Origin: a virus
Taxonomy: Duplodnaviria > Caudoviricetes
Direction: 5' to 3' (one strand)
Virus record (IMG/VR): IMGVR_UViG_3300029448_000030
Span: 1 to 61,195 of that record
DNA length: 61,195 nt
In this document: positions 706 to 55,233 of the stretch, in pieces
How the letters are laid out: the number at the start of each line of letters is the position of its first letter
How positions within the stretch are numbered: the stretch's first letter is position 1
Notes under the pieces: generated by a model
Database searches by the model: none
Told to the model about the DNA's origin: nothing
The model's input: only the letters and a program-made list of their open reading frames with translations
Translations under genes and position numbers: made by a program

Positions 706-3700
706 TTAAAATTTTATTTTTGGTTTTAAATCTAAATCTTTATCAAAATCTATATTAGGGCCAAAATCTAATTCATTAGATCTGCCTCTTCTTGTATTGT
801 TTTGTTCAAGGCCTAAGTTCCAAGTACTATAACCCATTAAAAACATAAGTCTTAATAATATTCTATAATCACTACTCATAGCATTACTTACATTTTCCAT
901 TTTTCTATGAATTCTTCCTAACGGAGCGTTTGTAAATCCTTCAATCATTTGAAGAGCCGCAGCAAGTTGATACTTATTTTTTAAACTAAAACGACCATGT
1001 TGTTGTATCAACCACTCACTCTCCTTTTTGTTCCAAACTAAAGTTTGATAAGCACTAAATATTTTTCTTAATTTTATATTTAAAGGAATCAAACCATCAG
1101 TTAAAGCTAAAACAACTTCTTGTCCTTTGTATGGTGCTTTAGGATCATTATATGTATTATACATACCAAGCGCAGCGTTCTTAGCCCATGCAACATATGC
1201 TAGTTTCAATCCTCCACCTCTTAAATAGTTATCTAACCATCCATTCCAGAATCTTTGTTGTTGTTTGTCATATTTACCAGTTGGCCATCTTTCTTCATCG
1301 TCATCAAACCATTTCATAAATAAAGCATTTTGTAAAAAAGAGAAAATAGCATATTGAATTCCACCATAATATGTTATTTTAGTTAACTTATTCCAAGTAC
1401 CGGTATCCCATTTATCAGTGTTTTTTAGTTTTTTACCTCTACCGTTTATAATATCTACTATATCCCTTTTCATAACTCTACTATATTGTAAAGGAGTATT
1501 TTGAAAAGCTAACATCCATCTCCCCATCATACCAGCTTGGTTCATAGATATTTTTGAAGGATCTCCAGATTGTTGAGTTTCTTCTGTTATTAAAAACCAA
1601 TCATAATAAGCTTTTTGTTCTGCTTCCTTTTCATTAAAACCATCTTTTATATAAGTATTAATTCTGTTTCTATAAAATGAAGCTCCACCAAACGCAATTG
1701 CAATACTATCAAAAATTCTAGTTAAGAAAAATCCTTTTTTAAGCGCCCAATTAGTAGCTTGATGAAGAATATCAACAGGATTTTTAGAATCATTGTTAAA
1801 AATAATAGCTTGAATTTCTTGTTCTTGCAGATCATTTAACATTCCTGTTCTTCTATCTTGTAAATAATCAGAATTCCATAAGTACGAAACATCTTTTCTT
1901 AGTTGAGGTAAATTAGCCATAGCTGTACCAAAAGATAATGGATTATTATCACTTGTATTTATATAGTTTAATGTAGAGACAAGCTGTAACAAACCTGATC
2001 TAGAGTTAAAGAACATTGTAACACCTACAGAACCTCTTATCCAATGCATAAAACCTTTTGTAGCATTATCCAATTGCATGTCTTTGTTTGTAGTAGCCAT
2101 TGTTTCAGTTCTATAAAGCATATCTTCTAAAGCCTCTCTATATACTTTTCCATATACAGCCTCTATTTTATTTAAATTATCTGCATTAAAAGCCATTTCA
2201 ACTGCATAAAGATAATCTTTTAACCATTTTTTTCTTTGTTGTATTTTTAATTTATCAGCAACATCCATTTGTATAGTGCTGATAAACCAATCTCCTTGTG
2301 GTTCAATATATCCATTAGGTTGCTTAGTTAGTATTGATAGCTCTTCAGCAAAAGATCGTAGCTCTGGATCTTTTCTTACAAAGTTTGATAGTTCAAACAT
2401 GTTTTTCTTATCTATATAACCAGGTTGACCTTTACTAGGCATTTGAAATTTACCTTTATTCCATAAATAAACCCTTATAGCTTGATCAATTGTAAAACTT
2501 CCAAATCCAGGAACTTCTTTTTTTAACCTATCTTTTATAGCTGGATATTTATTCATCAAGTTAACAAAGTCTTTGTTAGTTTTGTTTCTTGCAGTAGCTA
2601 TATTTAAATGACCTTGTGTGTAAGGTGCTAATATATTGTCATATAACCAATCTAATTGTTGATCAGCTTTTTTACCTTTTGTTCTAACTAGTTGCCATAA
2701 TAATCCTTTTAAATCCTGATCACCTGGCCCTAACCACCAACTATTATTATATTTTCCAAACTTTTTACCCCGGTTCCTTGCTTCAATATTATCAAATACT
2801 TTTTTAGGATCTATACCTTCACCTTCAGCTATAATTTGATTTATTGCTTGACTTATATCTGTACTATATTCGTCAAAATTAAAATCACTATTAAACTTAA
2901 CATCTCCTTCTTCTAATAATTTATTTGTAAGTTTACCTTTAGAGTTTTCTATATTTCTAAATTCAAAATTATTATAACCTTTAGAAAATTTATCTATTAA
3001 ATAAAACGCTATTACTTCGTCTTTCATGTTACCTAAATTAGGAACAGAAAACTTTATAGAATTTTTAAGTTCATGATTTTTAGATTTTATCTGCACGTTT
3101 AGCTGAGCATCCTGCATAACACTACCCATTAGAAATTGTTGTAGTACAGTTCTTCCTTTAAAGAAAGGGCTAAGCTCATTATTTAAACTAAATTTAACAA
3201 CAGATGATTTTCCACTAGCCATATCATTTAAAACATCAGCTATTATATTGTCATTTTTTAATTGATTATATAAGTTAGTATTTTTTTCACCTATTTGATT
3301 TAAAAAAGATTGACTTCTTAATGATTTTCTAGCTTGTTGTAAAACAAAAACATTACTTAATAATTCCATTAAAGCCGTTCTTCTATCATAAACTCCTGTT
3401 AGACCTATTTCTCTACCAGTTTTAGGACTTATTTCTGTAGAAACTAATTGCTTTAATTCTTTTGCTGGTGTTTTACTATATTTTTTTATTATTTCAGTAG
3501 CTTTATTTTTACCATAATATGTTTGTAAAAATAATGCTCTTGTTACTTTTTTTCTTTTAATTCTTCTACCCTCTTCATTAAACTCTTTTAAAGATTCCGG
3601 CATCATTTTAGCAGCATACGTAGCTTGTCCTGTTACAGGATCAAACGGGTTATTAATAACGTCTAATAATAATTTCCAATGAGTATACATAAACTCATCT

Positions 3701-6700
3701 AAAAAAGGACCTTTTTGAAATGTAACTTTTCTTAATAAAGGATATATGATTTTTTGAAGCTTATTTTGAAAATTATAAAATTGAAGTGTTTCTACATTTG
3801 GTGCTCTTAATATTTGATTTTCAACCTCTTTTACAAGCATGTCAACAGGTTTTTGAGGTACGCTAAGTGCTTTAAACGTTTTCAAGACTCCTCTAGAACC
3901 TAAATCATAGACTTCAAAATCTTTTAATTTTTTTAATTCATCGTTTTCAGCTTTAGTTCTACCTTTTATAGCTTCTAATTCTAAACCTCTTTTTAAATCT
4001 CTTTTTTGTTGCTCTAATTCTTTTTTAATTTTAGGATCTTCTTCAGCTGCTATTCTTCTATTTATAGTTACATCAACATCGTCTATTGTTTCTAAAGTAA
4101 TTGCTCTATCACCTAATGGTAGTGTTTCTATAATAATAGGATCTCCATTTACATCTACAAAACCAAAAATAGGATCACTTAATAGTTCAACTAGTTTTTC
4201 TTGATCTTCTTCAAACTTCATTTTTTGCTCACCAACTTTAGACTCTTCGTCTATTTCACCTAAAGTTCTTTCATCTATTTCACTTGTAAATTTTTCAGTA
4301 GTAATTCCTGGTCTTTTTAAAGCTTGTTTTATTTTGTTATTAAGTTGAGAGTTTATCCATGCATTTAAATCATTGTTCTCAGTTATTAACTCACCTTTTG
4401 AATTTTTATAACCTTTATCGTCTTGAGCCTCAACTCTTTTAGTTATTTCAGCCTTACTCAAACCTTTAGCAGCTAGTTGATCTTTAAATTTATCTCTTAA
4501 TTTTAAAAACTCTTTATTAAAATTTCTAATATGTTTTATTAATTCAAAATTAGTTTCAAACAATAAATCTTCTTTTGCAATATTAGGTAATGAACTATAT
4601 CTAGATTCTATTCTATATTCAATAACTGTTTCGTACTCTTGCATTATATCATAAAGAACACTATCAATACCAGTTTTTGTAGAAAAAACATCGCGATCAT
4701 AATAGTTGTTTATGTTTTCTTTAAAATTTTCTGGAGTTAATTTTTTATCTACTCTTAAAGAAAACTTATCATTAATTTTATTAGCTAAATCACTTTCTTC
4801 TTCATCAATGTTAGCAGCGGCGACAGCTGTTGTTATAGCTTTTTTCTTTGCTGCTTTTCTTTTCTTTCTTGTATCCGCAATTTCAGCTGCTAATTCTATA
4901 GTGGCTAAGTCTTTTTTTATCTGTTTAGCTTGCTTTTCTTTTTGTCTATCTAATTTCTTTTTTAATTTAGGTATAGTTTTTTCGTCAAGTTCTTTTTCTT
5001 CTTCTTTTAATTTCTTTTTTTCTTCTTCTGTTAAACCTTGTTTTTCTCCTAATTTTTTAAATGCCCTGTTGTATTTTAGCATTCCTGATTTAACACTTTT
5101 ATTATAATCCTGTAACATGTTAAAAACAGCTTTACCACTTCCTAAATCTATATCTCTAGCTCCTACAAACTGTAATGCTCTTCTCCAAGAGTTTCTAATT
5201 TGTTCTATAGCTGAAGCATCATATTTTAAATTTACATCAGGATCTCCAATTGCTTCTGAGTATAAGTTCATAGCCTCTTCCCATGTATCACTATATTTTT
5301 GTTCTAAAATTTGATCAGCTTTTTGTTTACTAATAATTTTGTTTTTTACTTGTCTATTTACTTTATCTTTAATAGTTTCAAAACGAGTTAAATATCCTTT
5401 TAATCTTCTTTTGAAATCAGATGGCATAACACTTTGATCTAAATCATCTTCTAATTGTAAATCAAGTTTACCTAGTTCATTAAACAATGCTTTACCTAAT
5501 AATCTACCTGCTTCAGCATCATTTGAAACTACTTCATTTATTAAAGCGTGAAAAAATTCATGCTGAGCTGTTTGAGTCATACGTTTACCACCTTTACTTT
5601 TTGCAGCATTGTATTTAAATTCAAGAGCATATTTAGTACCATCTTGAGTAAACATAGCTCCAAAAGAATTACCTTTAAAGAATCTATTTTTTAAATACCT
5701 TTCAAATTCTTGGTTTGTTCTATCTCTACCTTTTTCTTTATCAAACTTGCTAATAGTATTTTTTAAATATTCTAAAGCTTCTTCTTCAGAGTTAAAGTCT
5801 TTATATATAGTTTTACCTGCAACACCAGCTCTGGCTGCTGCCATTATACCTTTTCGTTGAGCTTTAGTTAACTCGTCATAATAAGTATTATTTATTCTAT
5901 CTTTTAATTGTTGAATTTCATCATCAAAACCTGTAAAACCTTTTGGTGCTTTTTTCTTATCGTTTTCAAGTTTGTTTAACTGCTGTATATCTTCTAGTAT
6001 TGTAGAAGCAGCATTTGCTGACATATTAGGCGGTACATGATTTATTGTATTTCTATATTGATCAACTTCTCCAAGTAAATTATCAGCTTCTTCTTGAGTA
6101 TAAAGACCTTGATCAATTTGACTTGCTAATAATTTTTTTAAATCAGACTCATGGTAAGCCATATAAGCCAATGAGTTAAATCTATCAACAGCATCCCAAC
6201 CCATAAACTCTCTTATTTGTTGGTTTGAAGAATTTACAATCTTTCCAGCCCCTGGCATAAAAGCGCCAGCTGTAAAAGACAATGCAGAAGTGTGTATAAA
6301 ATCTTCTAAAGTATAATTTGATTTAAGTAATTGTTGACCAGCTTGTCTATTTATATCAGCTCCTATTGCTAGAGTTTCACCAGCTTGCTGTATATTTTCT
6401 TGAAAAAGTTCTTTCCAACCTTCTCTCTGAATCATATCACCTGTTCTAAGAATACCTTTTCCAGTTTCTTTTAAACCTTCTCTAGTTCCAAATCTTTGAC
6501 CTTGTGTTTTCCAAAACTCATTCCACCCTTTCCAACCTTGTTTCATATAAGTTTGAACAGCTACGTCAATATTCTCTTTAACAGGTTTTCCAAATAATAA
6601 ATTTTGAGCTTTAGTTTGAGGACTAATAGGCGCTGTAATAGCATACCAAAAACCTGTTTGAACAGAAGCGTTTGCAGCTAATTCTCTTGATTCATCATCT

Positions 6701-10465: not shown

Positions 10466-11137
10466 TTAACCTCCTATTAAACCTCCTATACCACCAACTA
10501 CGTTACTTAATGAACTGTACATTTGTGCTTCTGCACCTGCTTCAGCGGTTCTAGCATCTCTTAAGTCTTGATTTGCATTGTCTAACATACCTGCGGTTCT
10601 ATTAAGTTCAGCTACTTCTCTTTGTTCTTTTGCACCAAACATAAATTGTTTACCCATAACATCAGCTGATTGTAACCTTTGTTCTTCTTGCATTTTAGCT
10701 TGGTTTAATCTTTCTTCACCTTGAGCATATAGTTTTTGATTTTGAGCTTCTTGTAATTGTATACTAGCAGATACTTGTTTTTTACTTTGTAATGCTGCTT
10801 GGGCTAAAGCTGTAGCACCACCTGCGCTAGCTCCAGTTGCTCTTAATGTATCTAGGGTATTAGCTAAAGAAATATCAGCTTGTTCCGCTTGAAATTTAGC
10901 AGCTTCTGTCGCTACACCTAAATTAGCATACGTGTTTGATAGTTCACCGCTAGTATCTGTTACGTCTTCGTACGGATTTATAATAGGTTGTCTTGTATTT
11001 TCTAGCGTGTTCAACTCACCTTTAAGACGGTCAGTTTCTTGTTGAGCCCTTCTTCTATCGTCTGCGGCTCTTCGCTGCGCGGCTCCTGCTCCAAGTAAGC
11101 CAACTGCCCCGCTGATTACTCCTGATGCTGCTCCCAT
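10466..11137 (-). CDS. Putative DNA ejection/pilot protein
   Basis: Gly/Ala-rich hydrophobic ends (MGAASGVISGAVGLLGAG; GGIGGLIGG) around an Ala/Gln coiled coil. Confidence 0.6.
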   Translation of the reverse strand: MGAASGVISGAVGLLGAGAAQRRAADDRRRAQQETDRLKGELNTLENTRQPIINPYEDVTDTSGELSNTYANLGVATEAAKFQAEQADISLANTLDTLRATGASAGGATALAQAALQSKKQVSASIQLQEAQNQKLYAQGEERLNQAKMQEEQRLQSADVMGKQFMFGAKEQREVAELNRTAGMLDNANQDLRDARTAEAGAEAQMYSSLSNVVGGIGGLIGG

Positions 11138-11534: not shown

Positions 11535-12872
11535 TTAATATGATGATTGCACGTATTCTGTAGATACTGCAAATAATTCGTTTGTTTGACTTGCGCCAGC
11601 TTCATTAGTAGCACTAAACGTAGCTATACCATAAAATCCTTTTACTCCAGATATATCAGCTCCATAAATAACTTCTCCTTGATTCACTGGACTAGTGTTT
11701 AATAAATTAGCAAAATATTTATTTTCTTTTGCTTTAAAAGTATTTTGTAGCAATGCACTTTCCATGTTTGCTAAAGTAGTAGGAACTGTATAAACATCTA
11801 TAGAATGAGCTGTATCTGACGTATTAGTTAAGTATGTTACAAAAGAACTTAAAGACCAATTACCATCACCTTCATAATTAACCGTTTTAAATGTTTTACT
11901 CATAGATGGTTGAGCATTAAATATTGTTGTAACAGTGGATATATTTTTTGATCCATAAAAAGCAGCTCTATCTATATTCTCTGAATAATGTTGATATAAA
12001 TCACCGGTTAAATCAAAACTATAAAACCTATTATCTACACTAAAAGTGTAAGCTGGAATATAACTATAGAAGCTAGTCCAACCTCTAGTTTTTTCATCAA
12101 AAGAAAGAGTAACAGCTCTTGCACCACTATCTTTCCCTACAGATGGTTGAATTGATAATACATATTGTTTACTATGTATATCCCAACCACCTACTAACCT
12201 ACCTATTTCACCCAGGTTACTTAAACTTAGGTTATCTCTAAAATAATCATACATTCCATAGCTAGATATCTCTGTTAAACCATCTTGAGATAATCTCATT
12301 ACTGCACTTTTATTAGCATCAGTAAAATATTTTCTATAACCATATACTGCAAATGATTCTGGATTTGTAGCTATACCATATTCCCCTGCATAAGATTGTA
12401 CTTGACCTATAACTAAATTACTACTTGTAGTTAAAGGTTGACCTTCAGCTGTGTAAATAGCATCTTTATCTATTAAAGCTCTATTAACTTTATATTCTTG
12501 GAATATTATCAAGTTAGTATCTTCAGCATATAGTAATTGTATAGTTCCTTTAGAAGGATCTACAGTTCTTGTAATCTCATTAGCAACTGAAAATTGATTT
12601 GTTTCATTAACATCTGTTCTAGAATTAAAAATTCCAGAATATATAATACTATTACCAAATGATTCTTGATATTTATTCTCTGTAGCTAAATAAGCTCTAG
12701 GAGCAATACCAGAAAACTTACCATTGAAATCACCTTTTATTCTTGATTCTTCAACATACCAATCATATTGAGCGTTTGTTCTATCCATATTACCAGTAGA
12801 AGCATTCCATGTTTGGTTTATCTTCTTTAAAATATAGGTATTATAGTATTTTATCTGTAGTGTCGTTGCCAT
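11535..12872 (-). CDS. Tail muzzle/stabilisation protein, C-terminal part
   Basis: Beta-propeller-like motifs YGIATNPESFAVYGYRKYFTD..SAVMRLSQDGLTEIS and TLSFDEKTRGWTSFYSYIP. Confidence 0.65.
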   Translation of the reverse strand: MATTLQIKYYNTYILKKINQTWNASTGNMDRTNAQYDWYVEESRIKGDFNGKFSGIAPRAYLATENKYQESFGNSIIYSGIFNSRTDVNETNQFSVANEITRTVDPSKGTIQLLYAEDTNLIIFQEYKVNRALIDKDAIYTAEGQPLTTSSNLVIGQVQSYAGEYGIATNPESFAVYGYRKYFTDANKSAVMRLSQDGLTEISSYGMYDYFRDNLSLSNLGEIGRLVGGWDIHSKQYVLSIQPSVGKDSGARAVTLSFDEKTRGWTSFYSYIPAYTFSVDNRFYSFDLTGDLYQHYSENIDRAAFYGSKNISTVTTIFNAQPSMSKTFKTVNYEGDGNWSLSSFVTYLTNTSDTAHSIDVYTVPTTLANMESALLQNTFKAKENKYFANLLNTSPVNQGEVIYGADISGVKGFYGIATFSATNEAGASQTNELFAVSTEYVQSSY

Positions 12873-47010: not shown

Positions 47011-47042
47011 CACGGAGTTATGTCTATATTATATAGATACTA
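47011..47042 (+). promoter_or_regulatory. Class I (early) promoter-like motif
   Basis: CACGGAGTT-N16-GATACTA. Confidence 0.7.
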
Positions 47043-47068
47043 TATATGAATTTAAAAAATAATATAAT

Positions 47069-47314
47069 ATGAAAAACACAAAAGTAAATGTATTACAAAC
47101 AAAAAGATTTGTGATACGTAAAAGTCTAATCGGCAAGAATACTGTAATCGTATTCACTAATCACAAGAATGAAGAATGTAAGTACAATCACGATGTAGTT
47201 TACAATCAATTGAAAGATAAGTTCGAGTCAATGAATTGCTTTCAGAAGTATTCAAGTTATACTAATAGTAAGAATCTACCGAAGTTTGTTAGAGAATTAA
47301 AGTCAATTGTATAA
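47069..47314 (+). CDS. Early protein, paralog A
   Basis: 81 aa; about 58/81 identical to paralog B by manual alignment. Confidence 0.85.
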   Translation: MKNTKVNVLQTKRFVIRKSLIGKNTVIVFTNHKNEECKYNHDVVYNQLKDKFESMNCFQKYSSYTNSKNLPKFVRELKSIV

Positions 47315-47322
47315 TGATAATC

Positions 47323-47352
47323 AAAGAGTCAGTTTCGACTGGCTCTTTTTTT
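47323..47352 (+). terminator. Rho-independent terminator
   Basis: AAAGAGTCAGT-TTCG-ACTGGCTC-TTTTTTT right after the paralog A stop. Confidence 0.85.
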
Positions 47353-47372
47353 ATACCCTTTTAACCGCGAGT

Positions 47373-47382
47373 CACGGACTTA
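47373..47382 (+). promoter_or_regulatory. Isolated class I upstream half-site
   Basis: CACGGACTTA with no GATA box at N16. Confidence 0.45.
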
Positions 47383-47419
47383 CATCTTTTATTTTTTTTT
47401 AACCATTTTTATTGACCTT

Positions 47420-47451
47420 CACGGACTTACGTTATTTTAATGTGGATACTA
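47420..47451 (+). promoter_or_regulatory. Class I promoter-like motif
   Basis: CACGGACTT-N16-GATACTA. Confidence 0.8.
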
Positions 47452-47475
47452 TATTCGAATTTTAAAAATATAAAA

Positions 47476-47718
47476 ATGAAAAACACACAAGTAAAATTAG
47501 TAACAAAGAGATTTGTCATTAGAAAGTCTCTAATTGGTAAAAACACAGTAATAACTTTTACTAATAAAAACAATGAGAAATGCACTTATAATCATGACAT
47601 AGTGTATAATCAACTAAAAGAGAAGTTTGACAATATGCCTTGCTTCAATAAATATGGTAATTATACTAACACTAATAACTTACCAAAGTTTGTTAGAGAT
47701 TTGAAGAAATTAGTATAA
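47476..47718 (+). CDS. Early protein, paralog B
   Basis: Start moved from 47440 to ATG 47476 by alignment with paralog A. Confidence 0.85.
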   Translation: MKNTQVKLVTKRFVIRKSLIGKNTVITFTNKNNEKCTYNHDIVYNQLKEKFDNMPCFNKYGNYTNTNNLPKFVRDLKKLV

Positions 47719-47726
47719 TCAACTAG

Positions 47727-47770
47727 TGACATTAGGCTATTACTATTATATTATTAATAGCCTTTTGTCA
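47727..47770. repeat. Nested inverted repeat (terminator or protein-binding site)
   Basis: TGACA-tt-AGGCTATTA-N12-TAATAGCCT-tt-TGTCA. Confidence 0.7.
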
Positions 47771-47796
47771 TTTTTATATCCTCAGGTCCTCACTAT

Positions 47797-47828
47797 CACG
47801 GACTTACATTATAATTCCTTCGATAATA
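47797..47828 (+). promoter_or_regulatory. Class I promoter-like motif
   Basis: CACGGACTT-N16-GATAATA, followed by a leader hairpin at 47836-47868. Confidence 0.8.
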
Positions 47829-47911
47829 TATATACAGGTTGCACAACTAGAGTTAGTGCATCAGACCTTTTAACCAATTTTAATAACTAAACAAAATAAC
47901 ACCTTTTAACT

Positions 47912-48079
47912 ATGACTAAAAAAATCAATACTAAACACTTTATAACTCAAGAAGATAAAGAGTATATAAAGCACTTATTAATAAATCACATATACGAGCA
48001 ACAACTAGATGGCTCATATTATGAGAGTGAAATACAAAGAACTAGAGAAATGTTAACTAGATTAAAATTAGAATTATGA
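47912..48079 (+). CDS. Small hypothetical early protein, 55 aa
   Basis: Manual ORF MTKKINTKHF...RLKLEL; ATGA overlap with the next gene. Confidence 0.65.
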   Translation: MTKKINTKHFITQEDKEYIKHLLINHIYEQQLDGSYYESEIQRTREMLTRLKLEL

Positions 48080-48315
48080 ACTATGATAAACTAAGTTATT
48101 TACTAGACCAACATACTGAGATACACTATGTGTCTGACTGTGATGTTTTCTTTAATGATAATAACTTAAATATACAAGACTATGAGAATTATAAATTCAT
48201 ACTATTTGAATATACTTCTGATATGGTTGAACTAATTAACTCACTTAAATCTAATAAAATACAATATACTAAAGAGACTGATGAGTGGGGACTAGATTAT
48301 ATATTAATTAAATAA
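48076..48315 (+). CDS. Acidic hypothetical early protein
   Basis: 79-aa ORF. Confidence 0.65.
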   Translation: MNYDKLSYLLDQHTEIHYVSDCDVFFNDNNLNIQDYENYKFILFEYTSDMVELINSLKSNKIQYTKETDEWGLDYILIK

Positions 48316-48325
48316 CACTTAAAAA

Positions 48326-48478
48326 ATGATAAAAGAAATAACATTTAAAATAGATGAAGATAATGATTTATATGAAATCACTATCAATAATGTAAATTAT
48401 ACACTAGATAATGTATATGATTCTCCTTATGGTGAATTATTTGATGAACTAAATATATTAATAGATAAAACACAATAA
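48326..48478 (+). CDS. Small acidic early protein, 50 aa
   Basis: Manual ORF MIKEITFKIDEDNDLYE...IDKTQ. Confidence 0.6.
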   Translation: MIKEITFKIDEDNDLYEITINNVNYTLDNVYDSPYGELFDELNILIDKTQ

Positions 48479-48479
48479 C

Positions 48480-48725
48480 ATGAAAACAACTTTTAGAATT
48501 AAAAATAAAACTACAATGTTTGTTACTACAACTAACGAGCACGACAAAACTACAAGAATAGAATATAAAGGTTATGTAGTTGGTGACTTACCAAACTCAT
48601 TTGGATTCAAAGAAAAATATCTTGGTCAAGACGAAGAAGGCAATGACCAATATAAATATGGTAAATACCAATGGTTTAAATTCAAAGGTTTAACTTGGTT
48701 AGTTGCGCCACCAAAAACGAATTAA
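48480..48725 (+). CDS. Hypothetical early protein
   Basis: 81-aa ORF. Confidence 0.65.
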   Translation: MKTTFRIKNKTTMFVTTTNEHDKTTRIEYKGYVVGDLPNSFGFKEKYLGQDEEGNDQYKYGKYQWFKFKGLTWLVAPPKTN

Positions 48726-48729
48726 TCTA

Positions 48730-48761
48730 CACGGACTTATAAATAAAAACTATAGATAATA
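48730..48761 (+). promoter_or_regulatory. Class I promoter-like motif
   Basis: CACGGACTT-N16-GATAATA, 5 nt before ATG 48767. Confidence 0.8.
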
Positions 48762-48766
48762 TTAAT

Positions 48767-49012
48767 ATGGAAAATTTATATAATAAACTTAAGCCAAATG
48801 TGAAGTTTAAACTTAAGCAGAACAAGGTTAAGTATAAAAACTCAGTAAATTATATTATAGCGAAGTTACACGTCTACACTCGTTATAATGAAATGACAAT
48901 AGACGATATAAGAACTTTAGCCTGTTTTTCAGAAGTAGATATTCATGATTGGACAAGTTACGACTGGAAATGGGGTGAAAAATTAATTGAAGCAGATGAA
49001 AAAGAATCATAA
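48767..49012 (+). CDS. Hypothetical early protein
   Basis: 81-aa ORF. Confidence 0.7.
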   Translation: MENLYNKLKPNVKFKLKQNKVKYKNSVNYIIAKLHVYTRYNEMTIDDIRTLACFSEVDIHDWTSYDWKWGEKLIEADEKES

Positions 49013-49157
49013 AACAATAGTGAAAGTAACAGATTTAATACTCAAAGCGTGGGTATATAGTCTAATGGGATTAACTATTATTGGTATGCTTACATTAATC
49101 TTCGGATTAATTACTGGTGAAGCACAAATACCTAATAGTTTCGGTATATACGGGTAG
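48996..49157 (+). CDS. Small membrane protein, 53 aa
   Basis: Manual ORF with a hydrophobic stretch (AWVYSLMGLTIIGMLTLIFGLI). Confidence 0.6.
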   Translation: MKKNHKTIVKVTDLILKAWVYSLMGLTIIGMLTLIFGLITGEAQIPNSFGIYG

Positions 49158-49295
49158 TAATAATAACAGTATCAACCAGGGAATCCCATGGTGATGAAGC
49201 AATATTACACCTTAGACGTGGATGCGAGTGTGGCATTGTTACTCGACCTAAAAACGTACGAGCACGTCTAAAATATAAGGCCTCTAGAGGCAACA

Positions 49296-49345
49296 GAGCA
49301 TACTACGGTACTAAAGTGCGGGTTCGAATCCCGCTATGCTCTCTA
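49296..49345 (+). ncRNA. Anticodon-less tRNA-like element 1 (50 nt)
   Basis: GAGCATA / CTACGGTACTAAAGT / GCGGG-TTCGAAT-CCCGC / TATGCTC / T-CTA. Confidence 0.7.
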
Positions 49346-49362
49346 ACTTTAAATTAATAACT

Positions 49363-49725
49363 ATGAGCTGGAAAACAGAACAGTATCATCTAGAAAATGC
49401 ATATGCTTTGGCTATGCTTCACGAAGATGGTATCGTAGAAACTACTACGAAAAGACAATGGCGCAATGGTACGCGTCAATTTAAACTACCAACAGGTCAA
49501 ACACTAGCAACCTATAAATCAGGTTATGTACGTAGATGTGACAGTAGCGATAGAATATGGCAACTAAATCACAAGTATAAAAGAAAAGTTAGATGGACTA
49601 TGTTAGATGGTATGAATCTAGTTACAAGAGAATATGATATGTGGGATAGAGCTAAGATCTTTTCAGGTCTAGCTAGATTAAATTTCTTACATAAATACGC
49701 AAAGAAAAATTACTTAAATAAATAA
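49363..49725 (+). CDS. Hypothetical early protein
   Basis: ATG 49363 preferred because the track start at 49336 lies inside the tRNA-like element. Confidence 0.7.
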   Translation: MSWKTEQYHLENAYALAMLHEDGIVETTTKRQWRNGTRQFKLPTGQTLATYKSGYVRRCDSSDRIWQLNHKYKRKVRWTMLDGMNLVTREYDMWDRAKIFSGLARLNFLHKYAKKNYLNK

Positions 49726-49728
49726 ATT

Positions 49729-49956
49729 ATGAAACTAAATGGATTTGAAAACTATATAATTACTGAAGCAGTAAATTATTATAAAGACAAGGCTGAAAAA
49801 GAAGTAGCAAAATTAGAAAAAGCTAAGGGTAAAGATGGTAAAACCTGTTTAATAGCTCCTGGTTATTATACTATGGTATGTAAAGATTTACTATATAAAA
49901 TAGATAGATTAACTTTAGCATCTTATATTAAAGAAAGAAATAATGAAAACAAATAA
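49729..49956 (+). CDS. Hypothetical protein
   Basis: 75-aa ORF. Confidence 0.6.
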   Translation: MKLNGFENYIITEAVNYYKDKAEKEVAKLEKAKGKDGKTCLIAPGYYTMVCKDLLYKIDRLTLASYIKERNNENK

Positions 49957-50146
49957 AGCATTAGATTTAATTAGTAAACTATTAATGTTTGCAGTAGTTT
50001 ATTTTGTAGGTGTATTTACTGCAATGTATTTCTGCTACAAACAACCACTTGATGAGCATTTACTAATACAAAATAGAGAAATTAATTTTCCTGAACAAGA
50101 ATGTTACACTCGTTCAGATATAGAATTGATAGTTTATGGTGAATAA
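49943..50146 (+). CDS. Small membrane-anchored protein
   Basis: N-terminal transmembrane helix. Confidence 0.6.
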   Translation: MKTNKALDLISKLLMFAVVYFVGVFTAMYFCYKQPLDEHLLIQNREINFPEQECYTRSDIELIVYGE

Positions 50147-50152
50147 TATCTA

Positions 50153-50184
50153 CACGGACTTAATAAATTATACTACAGATAATA
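50153..50184 (+). promoter_or_regulatory. Class I promoter-like motif
   Basis: CACGGACTT-N16-GATAATA. Confidence 0.8.
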
Positions 50185-50204
50185 TAAATGTAAAATAAAT
50201 AACT

Positions 50205-50417
50205 ATGGCAAAAATGAAAGAATTAGATCGAGTTGCACAAGTTTGTGCTGAAAATATGTTAGAACAATTATATGAGAATATACATTGGTCTATGCCTGCT
50301 GATGAAAATCTTGAAGGCGATGAATATATGGAAATGCATGACTATATTATGTCAAGAGCATTACATTATATGTCTAAAAAAGTAAGAAAAGAATTAAAAT
50401 TATCAAAAAAGAAATAA
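50205..50417 (+). CDS. Hypothetical protein
   Basis: 70-aa ORF. Confidence 0.65.
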   Translation: MAKMKELDRVAQVCAENMLEQLYENIHWSMPADENLEGDEYMEMHDYIMSRALHYMSKKVRKELKLSKKK

Positions 50418-50419
50418 TT

Positions 50420-50542
50420 ATGGAATGGTACGATTATATGAATCCTCATGACCAACCAGAGTATGAGTGTGTGGTTTGTGAAAGACCAATACATGAAGAA
50501 GGGGTTTGTAGTAGTGATTGTTGGTACGCTAGCATGCGATAG
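50420..50542 (+). CDS. Small Cys4 zinc-finger-like protein, 40 aa
   Basis: Manual ORF ...ECVVCERPIHEEGVCSSDCW... Confidence 0.65.
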   Translation: MEWYDYMNPHDQPEYECVVCERPIHEEGVCSSDCWYASMR

Positions 50543-50722
50543 TGTTTTTCATAGTTATAGTAAAGCATGTTAGTAGCTAGACGAGTAGGTTAATAGGATA
50601 TGTAAGACTCAGCGGGAGTATTCCTTAGAGCATTATCACGTAACTGAATTGCTAGTGCAACCGGAAGCGCACCGCTAACTACCTACTATGGTATTAAAGT
50701 TATGAGCGACTCGAGGTTGGAT

Positions 50723-50814
50723 AACTAGGTCTGGAATTAGTAAGGACGGGTAAAACCTCAGAAAGACTAAGACTATCGACGGATAAAGAGGTTCAATCCC
50801 TCTTCTAGTTACTA
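50723..50814 (+). ncRNA. tRNA-like element 2 (no canonical anticodon arm)
   Basis: AACTAGG...TCTAGTT acceptor stem, AGAGG-TTCAATC-CCTCT T-arm, A-CTA end, D-arm-like CTGGAATTAGTAAGGACGG. Confidence 0.55.
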
Positions 50815-50832
50815 AATTTTAAATAGATAAAT

Positions 50833-50964
50833 ATGGAATTTTTAGAAAAAAATAGATTTAGAGGTATTACTTTCTTAGGTAACGGTAAAGTCCACAACGG
50901 TTACATTGATAAAGAACAACCTTATGATGAATATTTAAAGTGGGCAGCAAAAAATATATACTAA
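50833..50964 (+). CDS. Small hypothetical protein, 43 aa
   Basis: Manual ORF MEFLEKNRFRG...; TAATG overlap with the next gene. Confidence 0.6.
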   Translation: MEFLEKNRFRGITFLGNGKVHNGYIDKEQPYDEYLKWAAKNIY

Positions 50965-51311
50965 TGGGTAAATTAAAAAACACAAGTGGTAATGGTACTT
51001 GGTTTCATGATGTAACTTTTGTAGCTACTCCTAATGAAATGAAAGCTATAGCAGAAAATAATAACTGTGAATACTGGGATAACTATGGTGCTATAAATGA
51101 TAAGTCACAATTTGATTTTAACTTTGAAACTGAAGAAGAAGTAGTGTTTACAGTTTATGACTGGAAAGAATATAGACACTATGAATTAGATGAGATGTTA
51201 TTCTGGCATATTGGTGGTTATACTAAAGCTGATACAGAAACAGGTTTAAAAGAATTAGAAGAAAATTTAAAAGATGTAAGAAGAGATCAAGCATATACTA
51301 CACGGACTTAA
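50964..51311 (+). CDS. Phage hypothetical protein with TVYDWK...WHIGG motif
   Basis: ATG 50964 coupled to the upstream stop. Confidence 0.7.
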   Translation: MGKLKNTSGNGTWFHDVTFVATPNEMKAIAENNNCEYWDNYGAINDKSQFDFNFETEEEVVFTVYDWKEYRHYELDEMLFWHIGGYTKADTETGLKELEENLKDVRRDQAYTTRT

Positions 51312-51332
51312 ACAAATAAACTATAGATAATA
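51301..51332 (+). promoter_or_regulatory. Class I promoter-like motif
   Basis: CACGGACTT-N16-GATAATA. Confidence 0.8.
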
Positions 51333-51347
51333 TATTAAATAATAAAT

Positions 51348-51608
51348 ATGGATTCAAAGAAAAAATACGAGGAGATGGTAGAAGATGGAGAAATAATATC
51401 TAACACTGCTAGAGAATTATATCAGCTATCTAAATTACCTCCACCAATGCCAAGACCTAAAGGTGTTATGATGGTACCAGATGAGGCTATGGCTAGAGAA
51501 TTATGGGAACAATACTTTAAAGCTAATAGTCCAGGTATATATGGATGGGAAGATTTTGAAATAGCTTACTCATTCATAATATGGTGCTATGCAAAAAGAA
51601 TAAAATGA
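51348..51608 (+). CDS. Hypothetical protein
   Basis: 86-aa ORF. Confidence 0.65.
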   Translation: MDSKKKYEEMVEDGEIISNTARELYQLSKLPPPMPRPKGVMMVPDEAMARELWEQYFKANSPGIYGWEDFEIAYSFIIWCYAKRIK

Positions 51609-51823
51609 AAAATATAATAAGTAATATGAGAAAATTTAATAGATATAAAGAAAACTTGAGACGAGTAGGCAACGATATATGGTCTTACTCTACTCATGTA
51701 GCAACAGTAGAATATCCTGGTAAACTAATACAACATGGTTGGTGGAGTGTAACAACACAGAAACATATTAACTATGTAGCAAGGGAATTAGGTTTAACTA
51801 TTGAAAAAGATTATACAGATTAA
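51605..51823 (+). CDS. Phage hypothetical protein with SY.THVA...S.TT.KH motif
   Basis: ATGA coupling supports a start at 51605. Confidence 0.65.
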   Translation: MKNIISNMRKFNRYKENLRRVGNDIWSYSTHVATVEYPGKLIQHGWWSVTTQKHINYVARELGLTIEKDYTD

Positions 51824-51827
51824 TCTT

Positions 51828-51935
51828 AGACATGATATGGTATTAAAGAGATAACACTAATGTGTAGCTGGAACATAAGAAACACGCTAACGAATAAGAA
51901 CTCTTACGAAGGTTCAACTCCTTCCATGTCTACTA
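51828..51935 (+). ncRNA. tRNA-like element 3, resembling the tmRNA tRNA-like domain
   Basis: AGACATG/CATGTCT acceptor stem, ATATGGTATTA loop, AAGAG/CTCTT stem, GAAGG-TTCAACT-CCTTC T-arm, A-CTA. Confidence 0.7.
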
Positions 51936-51952
51936 ACTTTAAATTTAAAACA

Positions 51953-52414
51953 ATGGCAGAATTATTAACTGATGAAATCATCAAAGAAAAATTAGAACAA
52001 GATGGCTTTATGGAAGAGCCTGATGGACCGTGGCTACTTGAGTATATTCAAGAAGAACATGGCGGTAAACTAGATAACACAAGCGACTTTGTAGATGACA
52101 AATGGACTTTAAAAATATACAGTGAATCAACTTATGATTCTTATGATATATTTTGGTGTACTCATGATGAAAGACCTTATGTATCACAAGATGGTTTTTA
52201 CTATGAAGATTATAATGAATGGTCAGAAAGAGCATTAAATGAACTATCTAGCGGCTCTGATGTATGGATAGATCCTAACTTGTGGTCAGATATGGAATAT
52301 GAATTTAATTATGCACTGGAAGAATGGTGGCAAGATGTATATGAAGAATTATTTCAAGAGAAAAAAGATGAACTATTAGATTCAGGAGATTATGAAGAGA
52401 ATGATAAAGAATAA
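51953..52414 (+). CDS. Highly acidic protein, DNA-mimic candidate
   Basis: Start at ATG 51953; about 46 D/E versus 10 K/R in 153 aa by manual count. Confidence 0.7.
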   Translation: MAELLTDEIIKEKLEQDGFMEEPDGPWLLEYIQEEHGGKLDNTSDFVDDKWTLKIYSESTYDSYDIFWCTHDERPYVSQDGFYYEDYNEWSERALNELSSGSDVWIDPNLWSDMEYEFNYALEEWWQDVYEELFQEKKDELLDSGDYEENDKE

Positions 52415-52476
52415 TATAGAAGGAATATGTGTTATAGTATTTGTTGTAGCTTATACTATAATAGTAAATAAATTAT

Positions 52477-53001
52477 ATGAATAATAGATTAGGAGAAATA
52501 TTTAAAAATAACTACGGAGATGTCTTTGCTGTTATATATAATAAAACAAAGAATAAACATTTGGCACACGAAATAGTTCAAAGAACTTTCTTTAAATTAT
52601 TAAATAGTAAATCTAAACCTAAAGATACTAAGCTACTGTCATATGTGATAGTAGCTGCAGGTACTACATTGTTAGACCATTATAGATCGCTTAAAACTAG
52701 AAGAAAAAATCTAGATGAAAATAGATATGACGAAAATATTTTAGACATGTTGGATAATAACCTATCAATTGAAGACGTTATAATACTGAATGATAATAAT
52801 AAATTAATTAAGAAATTAATTGATTCTTTATTACAAGAACAAAAAGATATTATAATATATAGGTATTATAAACATATGACGTTTAAGCAGATAGCTAAGA
52901 AAACAAATGTAAGTATTAATACAGCTTTAGGTAGACATAGATATGCTATTAATAATTTAAAGAAATTAGCACACGGACTTGATATAAATAACTTTAGATA
53001 A
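52477..53001 (+). CDS. ECF-type sigma factor
   Basis: Region 2 LAHEIVQRTFFKL...LLDHYR; region 4 L..EQKDII..RYY..MTFKQIA..TNVSINTALGRHRYAINNLKK. Confidence 0.85.
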   Translation: MNNRLGEIFKNNYGDVFAVIYNKTKNKHLAHEIVQRTFFKLLNSKSKPKDTKLLSYVIVAAGTTLLDHYRSLKTRRKNLDENRYDENILDMLDNNLSIEDVIILNDNNKLIKKLIDSLLQEQKDIIIYRYYKHMTFKQIAKKTNVSINTALGRHRYAINNLKKLAHGLDINNFR

Positions 53002-53003
53002 TA
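52972..53003 (+). promoter_or_regulatory. Class I promoter-like motif
   Basis: CACGGACTT-N16-GATAATA in the 3' end of the ECF gene, 5 nt before ATG 53009. Confidence 0.8.
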
Positions 53004-53885: not shown

Positions 53886-54497
53886 ATGAATAATCGCAAT
53901 ATAGATTGGTTGGTTAAACATCGAATTGTATTTAAACGAGATCCTATAACAGATATACCTACAATTGAAACCCATCAATACAAGTATTATGAGAATGGGA
54001 CATATGAGTGTTATCATCTATTTAATAGTAAGGCTAAAATTACTACATATAAATCGTTAAAGTGGCACTTCTTTGTATTATATTATCTTAATATGGATAA
54101 TATAATAAACTCTGACTTTGTTACTTTATCTAGATTTATAGCTAATAAAGATAATGGATTTGTTACGTTTTTTATTAAAAACAAACTATTAGAAGATATT
54201 ATTAGAGATGTATTACAACAAGGTGGAGAGCCTCCAAAAAATAAACTAAGGAAGATAATATTTAAGATGTCTACAGGGTTATCTACTAGGGAAAAGTTAT
54301 CAATTGTAGGTAAATTAATTGGTAGAAGCAAAGTATCTCAAGAAGATATTTATAACACTATGATATGTATGTCTGATTCAGAAAAGATAACAATAAGTAA
54401 ACTAGCTAAGACATTAAAATGTTCTACTAGAACTATACATAGACGCATGAGTAATGATTTAAAATTAGAAAAAGAAAGATTAAATGAAGAAATATAA
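53886..54497 (+). CDS. HTH DNA-binding protein
   Basis: C-terminal ITISKLAKTLKCSTRTIHRRM; coupled to the sigma gene. Confidence 0.6.
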   Translation: MNNRNIDWLVKHRIVFKRDPITDIPTIETHQYKYYENGTYECYHLFNSKAKITTYKSLKWHFFVLYYLNMDNIINSDFVTLSRFIANKDNGFVTFFIKNKLLEDIIRDVLQQGGEPPKNKLRKIIFKMSTGLSTREKLSIVGKLIGRSKVSQEDIYNTMICMSDSEKITISKLAKTLKCSTRTIHRRMSNDLKLEKERLNEEI

Positions 54498-55233
54498 TAT
54501 TTCTAATTACGTTAGGTATAAAGAAGATCTAAAAAGATCTATGCCTAAAGATAAGTTCTATGATTATTATACACGAGATGAACTTATTATAAAGTTTTTA
54601 CCTTTAGTTGAGGCAATGGCTAGAAAATTCTCTACAGATAGTAGAGCGTGTGGAGTATTAACAATAATGGATTTAATACAAGAAGGAAGTATTGGATTAG
54701 TTAAAGCTGTTGATAAACTTGATTGGTTGTTATTAAGTGATTCAGAAGATATAGAAAAAACATTAAAATCTTTTTTCTCTAAAAGAATAAAAGGAGCAAT
54801 AAGAAGAAGAATAGATATGTTAAGAGGTACAATGCGTATTCCTGAACATAAGATGAATGAAATGCGTAGTAACCCTAAAGATAAAAAAATGGTAGCTATG
54901 TTTTTTAATAGTATATTTTTATCAATAGATAACAATAGCAATGTAGATGAGAATATGATGTATGAAATTCCAGATAAATCTGAACCATATAATATACAGT
55001 TAATGAATGTGTATTTAAAAAGTTTAATGGTAAAACATTTAAATGAAAATGAATATGAAGTATTAAGATTAAGTTATGGTTTAGACTGTGATAAATACTC
55101 AGCTAAAGAAATAGCTGAAGAATTAAAAATAGTAGGACCGAGTGCTTATGTTAGAGTTTCAGAGCTAAAAAAGCAAGCGGTACAAAAACTTATAGATAAT
55201 GTAGATCACTCGCAAGTGCTTGATTATCTGTAG
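54484..55233 (+). CDS. Sigma-70 family sigma factor (regions 2-4)
   Basis: LPLVEAMARKF...MDLIQEGSIGLVKAVDK...RIPEH; LNENEYEVLRLSYGL....SAKEIAEEL. Confidence 0.85.
   Translation: MKKYNISNYVRYKEDLKRSMPKDKFYDYYTRDELIIKFLPLVEAMARKFSTDSRACGVLTIMDLIQEGSIGLVKAVDKLDWLLLSDSEDIEKTLKSFFSKRIKGAIRRRIDMLRGTMRIPEHKMNEMRSNPKDKKMVAMFFNSIFLSIDNNSNVDENMMYEIPDKSEPYNIQLMNVYLKSLMVKHLNENEYEVLRLSYGLDCDKYSAKEIAEELKIVGPSAYVRVSELKKQAVQKLIDNVDHSQVLDYL

Follow-up and report, generated by a model that had tools for sequence, protein, structure and literature searches.

We analysed a window of 61,195 nucleotides, the whole stretch held in IMG/VR record IMGVR_UViG_3300029448_000030 (Caudoviricetes), in which the virion block is closed by a giant ORF as its last large gene. 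This ORF, P0001 (706..8661, minus strand; from the ORF list and its translation), encodes 2651 aa, among them a sigma-2-like module, an HExxH motif and a C-terminal region, the last two conserved. It lies downstream of an ORF with the crassvirus muzzle C-terminal domain (11535..12872, minus strand; PF25729, E 6.2e-12; phrog_14478, virion structural protein), which marks the tail tip, and the ORF order places three further minus-strand ORFs between the two (11140-11529, 10466-11137 and 8665-10455). The cargo and virion-RNAP genes of crass-like phages occupy the same position in the virion block. In PhiCrAss001, according to PMC10172136, the muzzle gp44 is followed by the cargo proteins gp45/46 and the RNAP-associated gp47/49/50, all detected in virions by mass spectrometry. 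The syntenic giant of Flavobacterium phage elemoA is annotated as a 'structural protein'. From synteny we infer that P0001 is packed in the virion and ejected. ARAGORN found no tRNA.

P0001 matched no Pfam family at E <= 1, and a PHROGs scan returned only two weak families of unknown function, both outside the sigma-2-like module. Megablast and tblastn with P0001 found no match in 50,697 phage records, and neither did tblastn with the insert-less form of the module described below; no cultured phage with the module was found. Among the matches listed there were 83 metagenomic homologues of P0001, 1.6-3.7 kaa in length, and a second search listed 40 metagenomic proteins, three of them common to both searches. 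The module itself is widespread, being present on 59 IMG/VR contigs. It is missing from the syntenic giants of the cultured relatives elemoA and MW202828, in which the module HMM reached best i-E values of 0.84 and 0.25, respectively, with all domain scores negative. BLASTP of P0001 against the 3859-aa MW202828 giant gave nothing significant (best E 0.33).

The HExxH motif of P0001 is HEFFH at aa 1034-1038 (5548..5562, minus strand). Both His residues and the Glu hardly vary within the family, and the motif occurs likewise in the elemoA and MW202828 giants; judged by this motif, P0001 may also carry a zincin-like module. Two KFS(L) motifs were found further along the protein. The first (aa 1299-1301; 4759..4767, minus strand) is immediately N-terminal to the sigma-2-like module, reads KFSL or xFS throughout the family and is a possible processing site. 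The second (aa 1823-1825; 3187..3195, minus strand), VKFSL in the family consensus, closes a ~525-aa module that the sigma-2-like domain opens. The remainder of the inter-KFS segment (aa ~1455-1850; 3112..4299, minus strand) is conserved and mixed alpha/beta (model pLDDT 76) and gave no confident known fold; VIA for residues 173-552 returned weak unrelated matches only.

The first-pass annotation had proposed an injected sigma-like factor in place of a virion RNA polymerase. In agreement with this, no RNA polymerase family was listed in the Pfam and PHROGs scans of P0001 and 40 other ORFs, and P0001 had no Pfam, PHROG or PDB-sequence match to an RNA polymerase, with structure models covering aa 1299-1850. 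Nothing was found in support of P0001 as a crass-type RNA polymerase in a protein of which only a third was folded.

A sigma-2-like module in the giant ORF

Residues just after the first KFS motif (aa 1299) had been quoted as resembling sigma region 2, and they are present as written. The motifs YETVIEYRIE...NNKIKQAL span aa 1343-1448 of P0001, that is nt 4318-4635 on the minus strand, so that the range of 4318..4660 assigned to them was right at its lower bound and eight residues too far at its upper bound. The segment that superposes on the sigma-2 domain of solved sigma factors is aa ~1309-1454 (4300..4737, minus strand; model residues 11-156), perhaps including a region-1.2-like lead-in.

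By the model and by hhalign, three elements of this segment correspond to the conserved helices of sigma region 2. A long helix at aa 1329-1355 (GIDSVLYDIMQEYETVIEYRIESRYSS; 4597..4677, minus strand; DSSP helix 31-57 of the model) corresponds to region 2.1. The helix at aa 1363-1379, together with the NFN that extends to aa 1382 (KEDLLFETNFELIKHIRNFN; 4516..4575, minus strand; model helix 65-81), corresponds to region 2.2 and was aligned by hhalign to D-L-x-Q-E...F of sigma; in both clades of the family R-N-F-N is invariant here, and D1365, L1374, H1377 and I1378 are nearly so. Regions 2.3/2.4 are represented by the helix at aa 1432-1448 with its lead-in (NNDLNAWINSQLNNKIKQAL; 4318..4377, minus strand; model helix 134-150), in which N1429, L1432 and N1437 are invariant; W1435 (W or Y), I, S, Q, L, N1442 and K1443 are nearly so in both clades. 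In the family alignment the position of the region-2.2 Gln of sigma is variable and the next Glu is E, G or D. Because this pair is not conserved, the canonical contact with beta-prime is not assured.

The loop between the 2.2- and 2.3-like elements carries a clade-specific insertion of ~46-49 aa (aa 1383-1428/1431; 4378..4515, minus strand). An insert of ~45 aa had been described at this place; the insert is there, and 49 aa separate HIRNFN from LNAWINSQL. In the model the insertion forms two helices (85-100 and 105-118) and a small hairpin (119-128), and inside its own clade it is conserved, with D1414, G1417 and Y1418 invariant. Its conservation and predicted helices led us to reject the idea that this piece is an unstructured linker. 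The insertion is missing from the second clade, and in this insert-less sister clade the module has the canonical spacing of sigma factors.

Profile comparisons with sigma factors

Searches with the window's own protein did not reach significance. BLASTP of P0001 against both sigma factors encoded in the window (see below) gave E values of at least 0.47. Hmmscan found no Sigma70 match at E <= 1 in the whole of P0001 or in aa 1234-1518, neither of which reached the gathering score of Pfam Sigma70_r2 (PF04542; cut-off 24 bits), and a six-frame PF04542 scan of the window detected the two true sigma genes only and left P0001 unmatched. Phmmer and hmmsearch of the protein against the PDB gave 0 matches, and hmmsearch --max with a custom sigma profile gave a best i-E of 0.47, at aa 1351-1385. 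An hhalign comparison with a profile of the phage's own sigma family yielded a Prob of 0.4%, a profile that was too narrow. A search of genome contigs with the sigma-alignment profile returned nine phage-like contigs inside MAGs, not diverse sigmas, and sigma ORFs were then drawn from three of those MAG genomes.

Family profiles gave a different picture. When the family segment was aligned by hhalign with 30 diverse bacterial sigmas, the score was 30.3 (P 1.2e-4, Prob 54%), and the register was exactly that of the earlier alignment by eye. The signal was confined to one place in 2473 profile columns: among 29 sliding windows over the giant family, the two that contain the module scored 28.6-30.1 and the other 27 scored 8.3-17.0. 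As controls, the reversed profile scored 14.5 and 40 column shuffles scored at most 17.5. Three subclades scored separately gave 24.3, 30.1 and 20.5. The insert-less clade alone reached P 1.2e-4 and Prob 54% over 94 contiguous columns, and both clades combined reached P 7.7e-6 to 7.9e-7 and Prob 84-92% over 87-94 columns, so that P improved with added family diversity from 1.2e-4 to 7.9e-7. For scale, the phage's true sigma scored 39.0 against the ECF profile and the module scored 37.6-40.9 against the region-2 profile.

Furthermore, in 6 of 14 near-complete genomes of related viruses PF04542 matched the giant ORF at the module (E <= 1e-3), one of these matches being at 24.3 bits, just at the cut-off of 24, and the rest at 15.4-20.3 bits. 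Of the 12 insert-less giants, 6 gave hmmscan matches to Sigma70_r2 of 13.3-17.8 bits at the corresponding site; of the 7 insert-bearing giants, 0 did.

The first-pass annotation had failed to identify a region 4, and our comparisons gave the same result. None of 40 windows over the giant family scored above 15.4 against the region-4 profile (control, 72.7), and the 375-380 aa downstream of the module in both clades gave a Prob of at most 0.4% against region-4, ECF and group-3 profiles.

Predicted structure of the module

The AlphaFold2 model of the domain had a pLDDT of 88.4 and a pTM of 0.78. When it was compared by VIA-align with 48,161 PDB chains, ranks 1-21 were all sigma-2 domains, with Z values of 6.2-7.9; the best matches were SigB (Z 7.9, rmsd 2.8 A over 89 aa), T4 gp55 (7.8), SigC (7.5) and SigR (7.4). 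An independent 552-aa model (aa 1299-1850) placed sigma factors at all of ranks 1-26 (Z 6.0-8.1, gp55 at 8.1). The sigma-2 matches of both models had rmsd values of 2.8-4.7 A, and Z values of up to 8.1 are middling for helical models by the tool's own scale.

In Foldseek, which had been suggested as a check of the sigma fold, ~27 of the best 50 PDB matches of the domain model were sigma factors, none significant singly (E of at least 1.5), and the 552-aa model retrieved nothing (best E 0.24). In BFVD there was no match at E <= 0.001, and 13 of the best 50 were named phage sigmas or gp55.

By predicted fold and profiles, aa ~1309-1454 is a genuine sigma-2 domain of the sigma-70 family (regions 2.1-2.4), and we are highly confident that the domain is real. 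The alignment by eye, with its insertion in the 2.2-2.3 loop, is borne out by the hhalign register, by Pfam in the relatives and by the models. The architecture is that of a gp55-like minimal sigma module fused into a modular protein of ~2650 aa.

Free-standing sigma factors and a promoter-like motif

On the plus strand the window encodes two free-standing sigma factors with regions 2 and 4. One is an ECF-like sigma of 174 aa (52477..53001; Pfam Sigma70_r2, r4 and r4_2, and a six-frame match to PF04542). The other, of 249 aa (54484..55233; Pfam), matched 57 PDB sigma chains at E <= 0.01 and was used as the positive control; its hhalign Prob was 98% for the region-2 profile and 97.8% for that of region 4. 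Free-standing sigma ORFs were present in 10 of 14 module-bearing genomes and in 0 of 6 complete module-less relatives, counts that are not phylogenetically independent.

Promoters had been proposed upstream of both sigma genes, and a bipartite phage-specific motif is indeed found there. CACGGASTT-N16-GATAMT occurs seven times within 47011..53002 (starts at 47011, 47420, 47797, 48730, 50153, 51301 and 52972), always on the plus strand and ahead of early ORFs and both sigma genes, and was found 0 times in 100 shuffles. Reading the -35-like half of this motif is beyond the module on its own, for it has neither region 3 nor region 4. Among relatives, the motif was found in G031 (7 copies), G034 (5) and G032 (2), and in neither G039 nor G042. 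The latter two belong to the insert-less clade, whose module hardly differs from that of the other clade in its DNA-facing helix, and yet they lack the motif; a crude search for repeated 10-mers in two insert-less genomes gave no shared promoter motif. The strict Bacteroidetes sigma-A consensus TTTG-N17-21-TAnnTTTG was found twice, with 3.25 expected, and not in the early region, a result that is neutral on the use of host promoters.

A possible role in early transcription

We favour, with a probability of roughly 40%, the explanation that a packaged and ejected sigma-2 module docks on the host core RNAP for the first transcripts. P0001 would be packed in the capsid and ejected before or with the DNA, as is the crass-like cargo or virion RNAP encoded at the same gene position, and the inter-KFS module would possibly be freed by processing. 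The sigma-2 module would dock on the beta-prime clamp helices of host core RNA polymerase, and once docked it would recruit or prime the polymerase on the incoming genome. The first transcripts, the free-sigma mRNAs included, would then precede any phage protein synthesis. Transcription from the bipartite CACGGACTT-N16-GATAAT promoters would afterwards pass to the free sigmas, which have both region 2 and region 4. The interpretation offered by the first-pass annotation is, as a whole, partly supported. Its 'injected sigma' is plausible, at odds that we put below even. The more specific proposal, that an uncultured Flavobacteriia-type podophage lineage carries in its virion a minimal sigma which is ejected along with the DNA and redirects host core RNAP to the first transcripts, we regard as doubtful.

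The module could also descend from sigma-2 and have been exapted, with no role at RNAP, as a helical scaffold, as a DNA-binding or DNA-end component of the machinery for ejection or packaging, or in partnership with another protein of the virion or the host. Such an origin would fit a domain that lies deep inside a 2651-aa protein, next to further conserved modules, that does not conserve the sigma-typical Gln/Glu positions of region 2.2 and lacks region 4, and whose best-conserved residues (RNFN, D..GY in the insert, and N..L..W.N) differ from the sigma consensus; the clade-specific promoters also do not track the invariant helix. Exaptation explains less well why the whole 2.1-2.4 architecture and its spacing were kept in two deeply diverged clades, why aromatic, Asn and basic residues were kept on the 2.3/2.4-like helix, and why the module is found together with a phage transcription programme built on sigmas. 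We consider it unlikely, if far from negligible. The motif's absence from two insert-less-clade genomes with the same DNA-facing helix, and the unconserved Gln/Glu positions of region 2.2, are observations that run against the full ejected-sigma reading as well, as does the -35-like half of the motif, which is out of reach for a lone sigma-2 domain.

Somewhat less likely again is a factor for takeover or tethering of RNAP without promoter specificity. Phages are known to inject modifiers of host RNAP (T4 Alt) and to couple genome entry to transcription (T7), and with these precedents in mind a sigma-2 mimic on the beta-prime clamp helices might displace host sigma, and so bring about shut-off, or might anchor the polymerase at the genome end, with transcription pulling the DNA in. 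A sigma-2-only fold with no regions 3 or 4, encoded at the gene position of ejected cargo, would suit such a factor, and the phage's own complete sigmas could read the bipartite promoters. However, the helix equivalent to the DNA-contacting regions 2.3/2.4 is the most conserved part of the module and would be superfluous in a pure beta-prime decoy, and the region-2.2-like face is the less sigma-like one.

That there is no homology at all, and that a common four-helix arrangement and chance motif matches were reinforced by sigma patterns learned by AlphaFold, is very improbable: the window's protein indeed has no significant single-sequence or Pfam match, its Foldseek E values are at least 1.5 and its Z values of up to 8.1 are often reached by helical models, but the top 21 and top 26 of the 48,161 chains are exclusively sigma-2, the hhalign signal grows with family diversity (1.2e-4 to 7.9e-7) and is found at one place in the 2473 profile columns, PF04542 attains its threshold score in one relative and matches further relatives at that position too, and the insert-less clade has canonical spacing.

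If the ejected sigma-2 module does act on the host core RNAP, it would be a third solution to early transcription beside host-sigma promoters and virion RNA polymerases, and it would bootstrap the cascade run by the two free-standing sigmas of the phage. Binding of the module to host polymerase would mean that phages without a virion RNAP could control the very first transcription, and it would account for the firing of phage-specific promoters that precede the sigma genes of the phage itself.

Comparison with known systems

The module shares with the sigma-2 domain of PF04542 (ECF SigR and SigC, sigma-E) the 2.1, 2.2 and 2.3/2.4 helices in identical order and at identical spacing, the motif positions D-(L/M)-x-x-E-T...L...F and (L/F)-x-x-(W/Y)-(I/L)...N...(K/R), and the predicted fold (Z 6-8, rmsd ~3 A over 78-101 residues). 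It differs from these domains in that it lies inside a 2651-aa protein, has no regions 3/4, does not conserve the region-2.2 Gln, scores below the Pfam threshold in the window and carries the 49-aa insertion in the 2.2-2.3 loop. To our knowledge, no sigma factor has an insertion in this loop. The module offers a testable unit of ~150 aa in which the sigma-2 fold has a new site of insertion.

T4 gp55, which is small and free-standing and is synthesised in the course of infection, reads only a -10-like element and needs gp33 and the sliding clamp. Like the module, it has a sigma-2-like domain alone, and it ranked first or second among the structural matches (chain 7d7d_F at Z 7.8 and 8.1 with 94 aligned residues, and 7d7c_F in Foldseek). 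The likeness is structural, and whereas gp55 is free-standing, the module is embedded in a 2651-aa, presumably pre-made virion protein. Sigma factors in general are known as free, newly synthesised proteins, and in the open-access literature searched no sigma domain was found described as part of a virion or ejection protein.

With the virion RNAPs of crass-like and N4-like phages P0001 shares its giant size, its place in the distal virion block downstream of a muzzle-type tail-tip gene, and the proposed role of giving first transcripts without new protein synthesis. It differs from them in that no polymerase domain was detected and that the module would serve the host polymerase as a sigma-like adaptor instead of being an enzyme itself.

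Injected proteins that act on host RNAP, with mention of T4 Alt, are treated by Iyer et al. 2017 (PMC5512222), a paper in which the word 'sigma' occurs 0 times; P0001 would fit this concept. The Pfam-listed polyvalent domains of that paper are unmatched in P0001. Polyvalent giant virion proteins and T4 Alt nevertheless resemble P0001 in being multi-module giants with a zincin-like HExxH and effector modules that vary among relatives. Even if it was exapted, the sigma-2 module gives a first functional handle on giants that standard annotation leaves blank.

Genome organisation and the giant protein

The 61,195-bp IMG/VR record has an estimated completeness of 95%. Its late, virion block occupies the minus strand between ~46.7 and 0.4 kb and includes the genes for the large terminase (25949-28159) and the P22-like portal (23534-25948), those for several PHROG 'virion structural' proteins and a 1610-aa fibre-like protein, and an ORF with a crassvirus muzzle C-terminal domain (11535-12872; PF25729, E 6e-12), which is followed by three smaller ORFs and then by a giant ORF of 2651 aa (706-8661, minus strand). 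A full-length GroEL-type chaperonin (37060-38616; PF00118, E 3e-58) and a co-chaperonin-like protein (28361-28987; phrog_13932) are also encoded by the phage on this strand. The early, replication and recombination genes occupy the plus strand from 47 kb onward, together with two bona fide sigma factors, an ECF-like one of 174 aa (52477-53001) and another of 249 aa (54484-55233). Relatives of the portal are found in Flavobacteriia podophages at 25-51% identity (Flavobacterium elemo phages, Cellulophaga phi38:1 and phi13:2, Tenacibaculum Gundel_1 and Maribacter Panino). Close homologues of the 249-aa sigma (62-80%) occur on short contigs that binning had assigned to MAGs with the labels Clostridium, Aliivibrio, Arcobacter, Woesearchaeota and Bacteroidetes (loci L006-L014); these are most likely mis-binned phage contigs, and their labels are therefore uninformative on the host.

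The giant gene has the position at which, according to the account of PhiCrAss001 in PMC10172136, that phage encodes its cargo and RNAP-associated proteins after the muzzle gene; those proteins were detected in virions by mass spectrometry. The syntenic gene of Flavobacterium phage elemoA (3694 aa) is annotated as 'structural protein'. Four KFS motifs are present in the giant ORF, at aa 1299 (4759-4767), 1823 (3187-3195), 1870 (3046-3054) and 1891 (2983-2991), all on the minus strand. The first two (KFSL) are conserved family-wide and flank a ~525-aa module that opens with a sigma region 2-like domain (sigma-2). The KFS motifs are possible sites of proteolytic maturation; no gene for a protease was identified. 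Upstream, an HExxH motif (HEFFH, aa 1034; 5548-5562, minus), followed by a conserved Glu, is nearly invariant in both clades of the family and recurs in the otherwise unrelated-looking giants of elemoA and MW202828. It seems to mark a zincin-like peptidase module common to these proteins, although Pfam gave no match to this region. The C-terminal ~700 aa (2500-706, minus) are the best conserved part across the two clades, rich in invariant residues (FYRNR, SQQS.D.SKIS.NQ and FQNTPLQY among others), and may be a packaging or ejection anchor common to giants with differing middle modules. The sigma-2 module itself is absent from the elemoA and MW202828 (3859 aa) giants and was found in no GenBank phage. 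These proteins look modular, HExxH being common and the other modules differing.

Sequence similarity to sigma region 2

The stretch that the first-pass annotation had compared by eye with sigma-70 regions 2.1-2.4 is present right after the first KFS motif (aa 1343-1448, nt 4318-4635), and the insert, put there at ~45 aa, measures 49 aa from HIRNFN to LNAWINSQL. In metagenomes, 83 homologues of this region were found, in proteins of 1.6-3.7 kaa; an exhaustive phmmer search of 1.84 billion representatives yielded no more than 20, each either a protein of this type or a fragment. RNFN, D..GY and N..L..N are invariant in the family alignment, in which the 49-aa 'insert' is conserved and not a linker. 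A second clade (at least 40 giant proteins among the matches listed) came to light through two weak phmmer matches, and at least 27 of its 38 scanned giants carry the module without the 49-aa piece (...GAD.AI..LY....L..LI.SKI....PPGFS.EDFV..T..ELIPHIRNFNPE.N.SLSGWINSQL.NKIGNVFKKG). The insertion is thus confined to the clade of the window.

The initial tests all came out negative. BLASTP of the giant protein against both window sigmas gave only E >= 0.47, and hhalign against a narrow profile of the 249-aa sigma's close relatives gave Prob 0.4%. Likewise, hmmscan of the giant protein yielded no Sigma70 match at E <= 1, a six-frame PF04542 scan of the window matched the two true sigma genes only, and PDB sequence searches with the segment and the family profile returned nothing, while the 249-aa sigma matched 57 sigma chains. 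A different picture came from region-2, ECF full-length and region-4 profiles built from 30 diverse sigma ORFs (sigma-70-like, RpoS/FliA-like and many ECF), picked by PF04542 matches in three MAG genomes. The window-clade segment aligned with region 2 over 71 columns (score 30.3, P 1.2e-4, Prob 54%) in the same register as the alignment by eye, and a longer query skipped the insertion and paired LNAWINSQL.NK with regions 2.3/2.4. When 29 windows were slid along the 2473 profile columns of the giant family, the two that contained the region scored 28.6-30.1 and the remaining 27 scored 8.3-17.0; the reversed profile reached 14.5 and 40 column shuffles at most 17.5. Three subclades scored 24.3, 30.1 and 20.5 separately, and the phage's true sigma 82.9 against region 2 and 39.0 against ECF. 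The insert-less clade alone gave Prob 54.8% (P 1.2e-4, 94 contiguous columns), both clades merged 84% (P 7.7e-6), and the merged clades with the insertion as an insert state 92% (P 7.9e-7), so that the signal grows with added diversity, as homology predicts.

Among 14 near-complete module-bearing viral genomes, the PF04542 six-frame scan matched the giant ORF at the module in six (24.3, 20.3, 18.5, 18.1, 16.1 and 15.4 bits), the best being at the curated cut-off of 24 bits and the 16.1-bit match belonging to a window-clade member. In hmmscan of 19 giants, Sigma70_r2 matched 6 of the 12 without the insert at the equivalent site (13.3-17.8 bits, E 0.003-0.075) and none of the 7 with it; no other family recurred. 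The similarity to regions 2.1-2.4 stands in the profile comparisons (84-92% with the clades merged), but not in Pfam, BLASTP or PDB sequence searches with the window's protein.

Predicted structure of the domain

An AlphaFold2 model of aa 1299-1470 (50 alignment rows from both clades; pLDDT 88.4, pTM 0.78) comprises a long helix (model residues 31-57), a second helix ending in RNFN (65-81), two insert helices with a hairpin (85-128) and a final helix (134-150). In an unbiased VIA-align search of 48,161 PDB representatives, ranks 1-21 were exclusively sigma-2 domains, led by SigB (8x6g_H, Z 7.9, rmsd 2.8 A, 89 aa) and T4 gp55 (7d7d_F, Z 7.8) and including SigC, SigR, sigma-28, ShbA, sigma-32, sigma-S, pro-sigma-K, CnrH, SigK, sigma-E region 2 and SigA domain 2; a protein other than a sigma factor first appeared at rank 22. 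For a separate 552-aa model (aa 1299-1850, different alignment; pLDDT 76.4), ranks 1-26 were likewise all sigma-2 domains, gp55 reaching Z 8.1. By the tool's own caveat, a Z under 8 is middling and a helical model may reach a high value by chance; what counts here is that the match list is uniform, not how large Z is. Foldseek found nothing significant for the domain model (best E 1.5), but ~27 of the best 50 matches listed were sigma factors. We consider it highly probable that the sigma-2 domain is real; that the resemblance is chance or a model artefact is very improbable, given the uniform list and the controls.

Promoter-like motif and free-standing sigma factors

The motif CACGGASTT-N16-GATAMT occurs seven times, always on the plus strand (47011-53002), and in none of 100 shuffles. 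Copies stand upstream of the first early ORFs and, as the first-pass annotation had stated, of both sigma genes: at 51301, ahead of the operon ending with the 174-aa sigma, and at 52972, ahead of that containing the 249-aa sigma. It is kept in three related window-clade genomes (G031, 7 copies; G034, 5; G032, 2) and absent from two insert-less genomes. The -35/-10-like arrangement suits a sigma with two domains, which makes the free phage sigmas the natural readers of the motif; probably it represents the promoter class of one or the other. A strict host sigma-A consensus was not enriched in the window, which proves little.

Free-standing sigma ORFs (176-268 aa) were found in the window and in 10 of the 14 module-bearing genomes, versus none of six complete module-less relatives (elemoA, MW202828, phi38:1, phi13:2, Gundel_1 and Panino). 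This difference (11/15 vs 0/6; Fisher P ~0.004, calculated by hand) is an association of lineages and not of independent events, because the genomes are related.

Possible role of the module

The failure to find a region 4 by eye was borne out by hhalign, in which 0 of 40 windows of the giant family exceeded 15.4 (control 72.7). Nothing like region 3 or 4 follows the module in either clade, and for the remainder of the inter-KFS module (aa ~1455-1850) VIA-align gave no confident match to a known fold. Where sigma factors have the conserved region-2.2 Gln, the family is variable, and at the Glu position that follows it has E, G or D.

As the most likely mechanism, tentatively inferred end to end (probability about 0.4), the giant protein would be delivered along with the virion, and its module would engage host core RNAP via the clamp helices, act as a gp55-like minimal sigma or recruiter and so bootstrap the phage sigma cascade. 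The gene's position, the gp55 match and the co-occurring sigmas are consistent with such a role. Exaptation of the sigma-2 domain for a non-RNAP role is rather unlikely; the variable region-2.2 positions would be compatible with it, and the association with free-standing sigmas speaks against it. An RNAP-binding decoy or tether without specificity, which would accommodate both the retained fold and the missing region 4, is unlikely too, and somewhat more doubtful.

Repeats in the early region

The first early gene is tandemly duplicated: a 224-nt direct repeat of 71% identity (47092-47315 and 47496-47719, plus strand) covers two short early ORFs of 81 and 92 aa, both of which have the promoter motif in front of them. 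ARAGORN found no tRNA across the whole window. Two 45-nt copies, 73% alike (49321-49365 and 51911-51955, plus strand), run into an ORF start and open with GGTTCGAATCC-like sequence, reminiscent of a tRNA T-arm/3' end.
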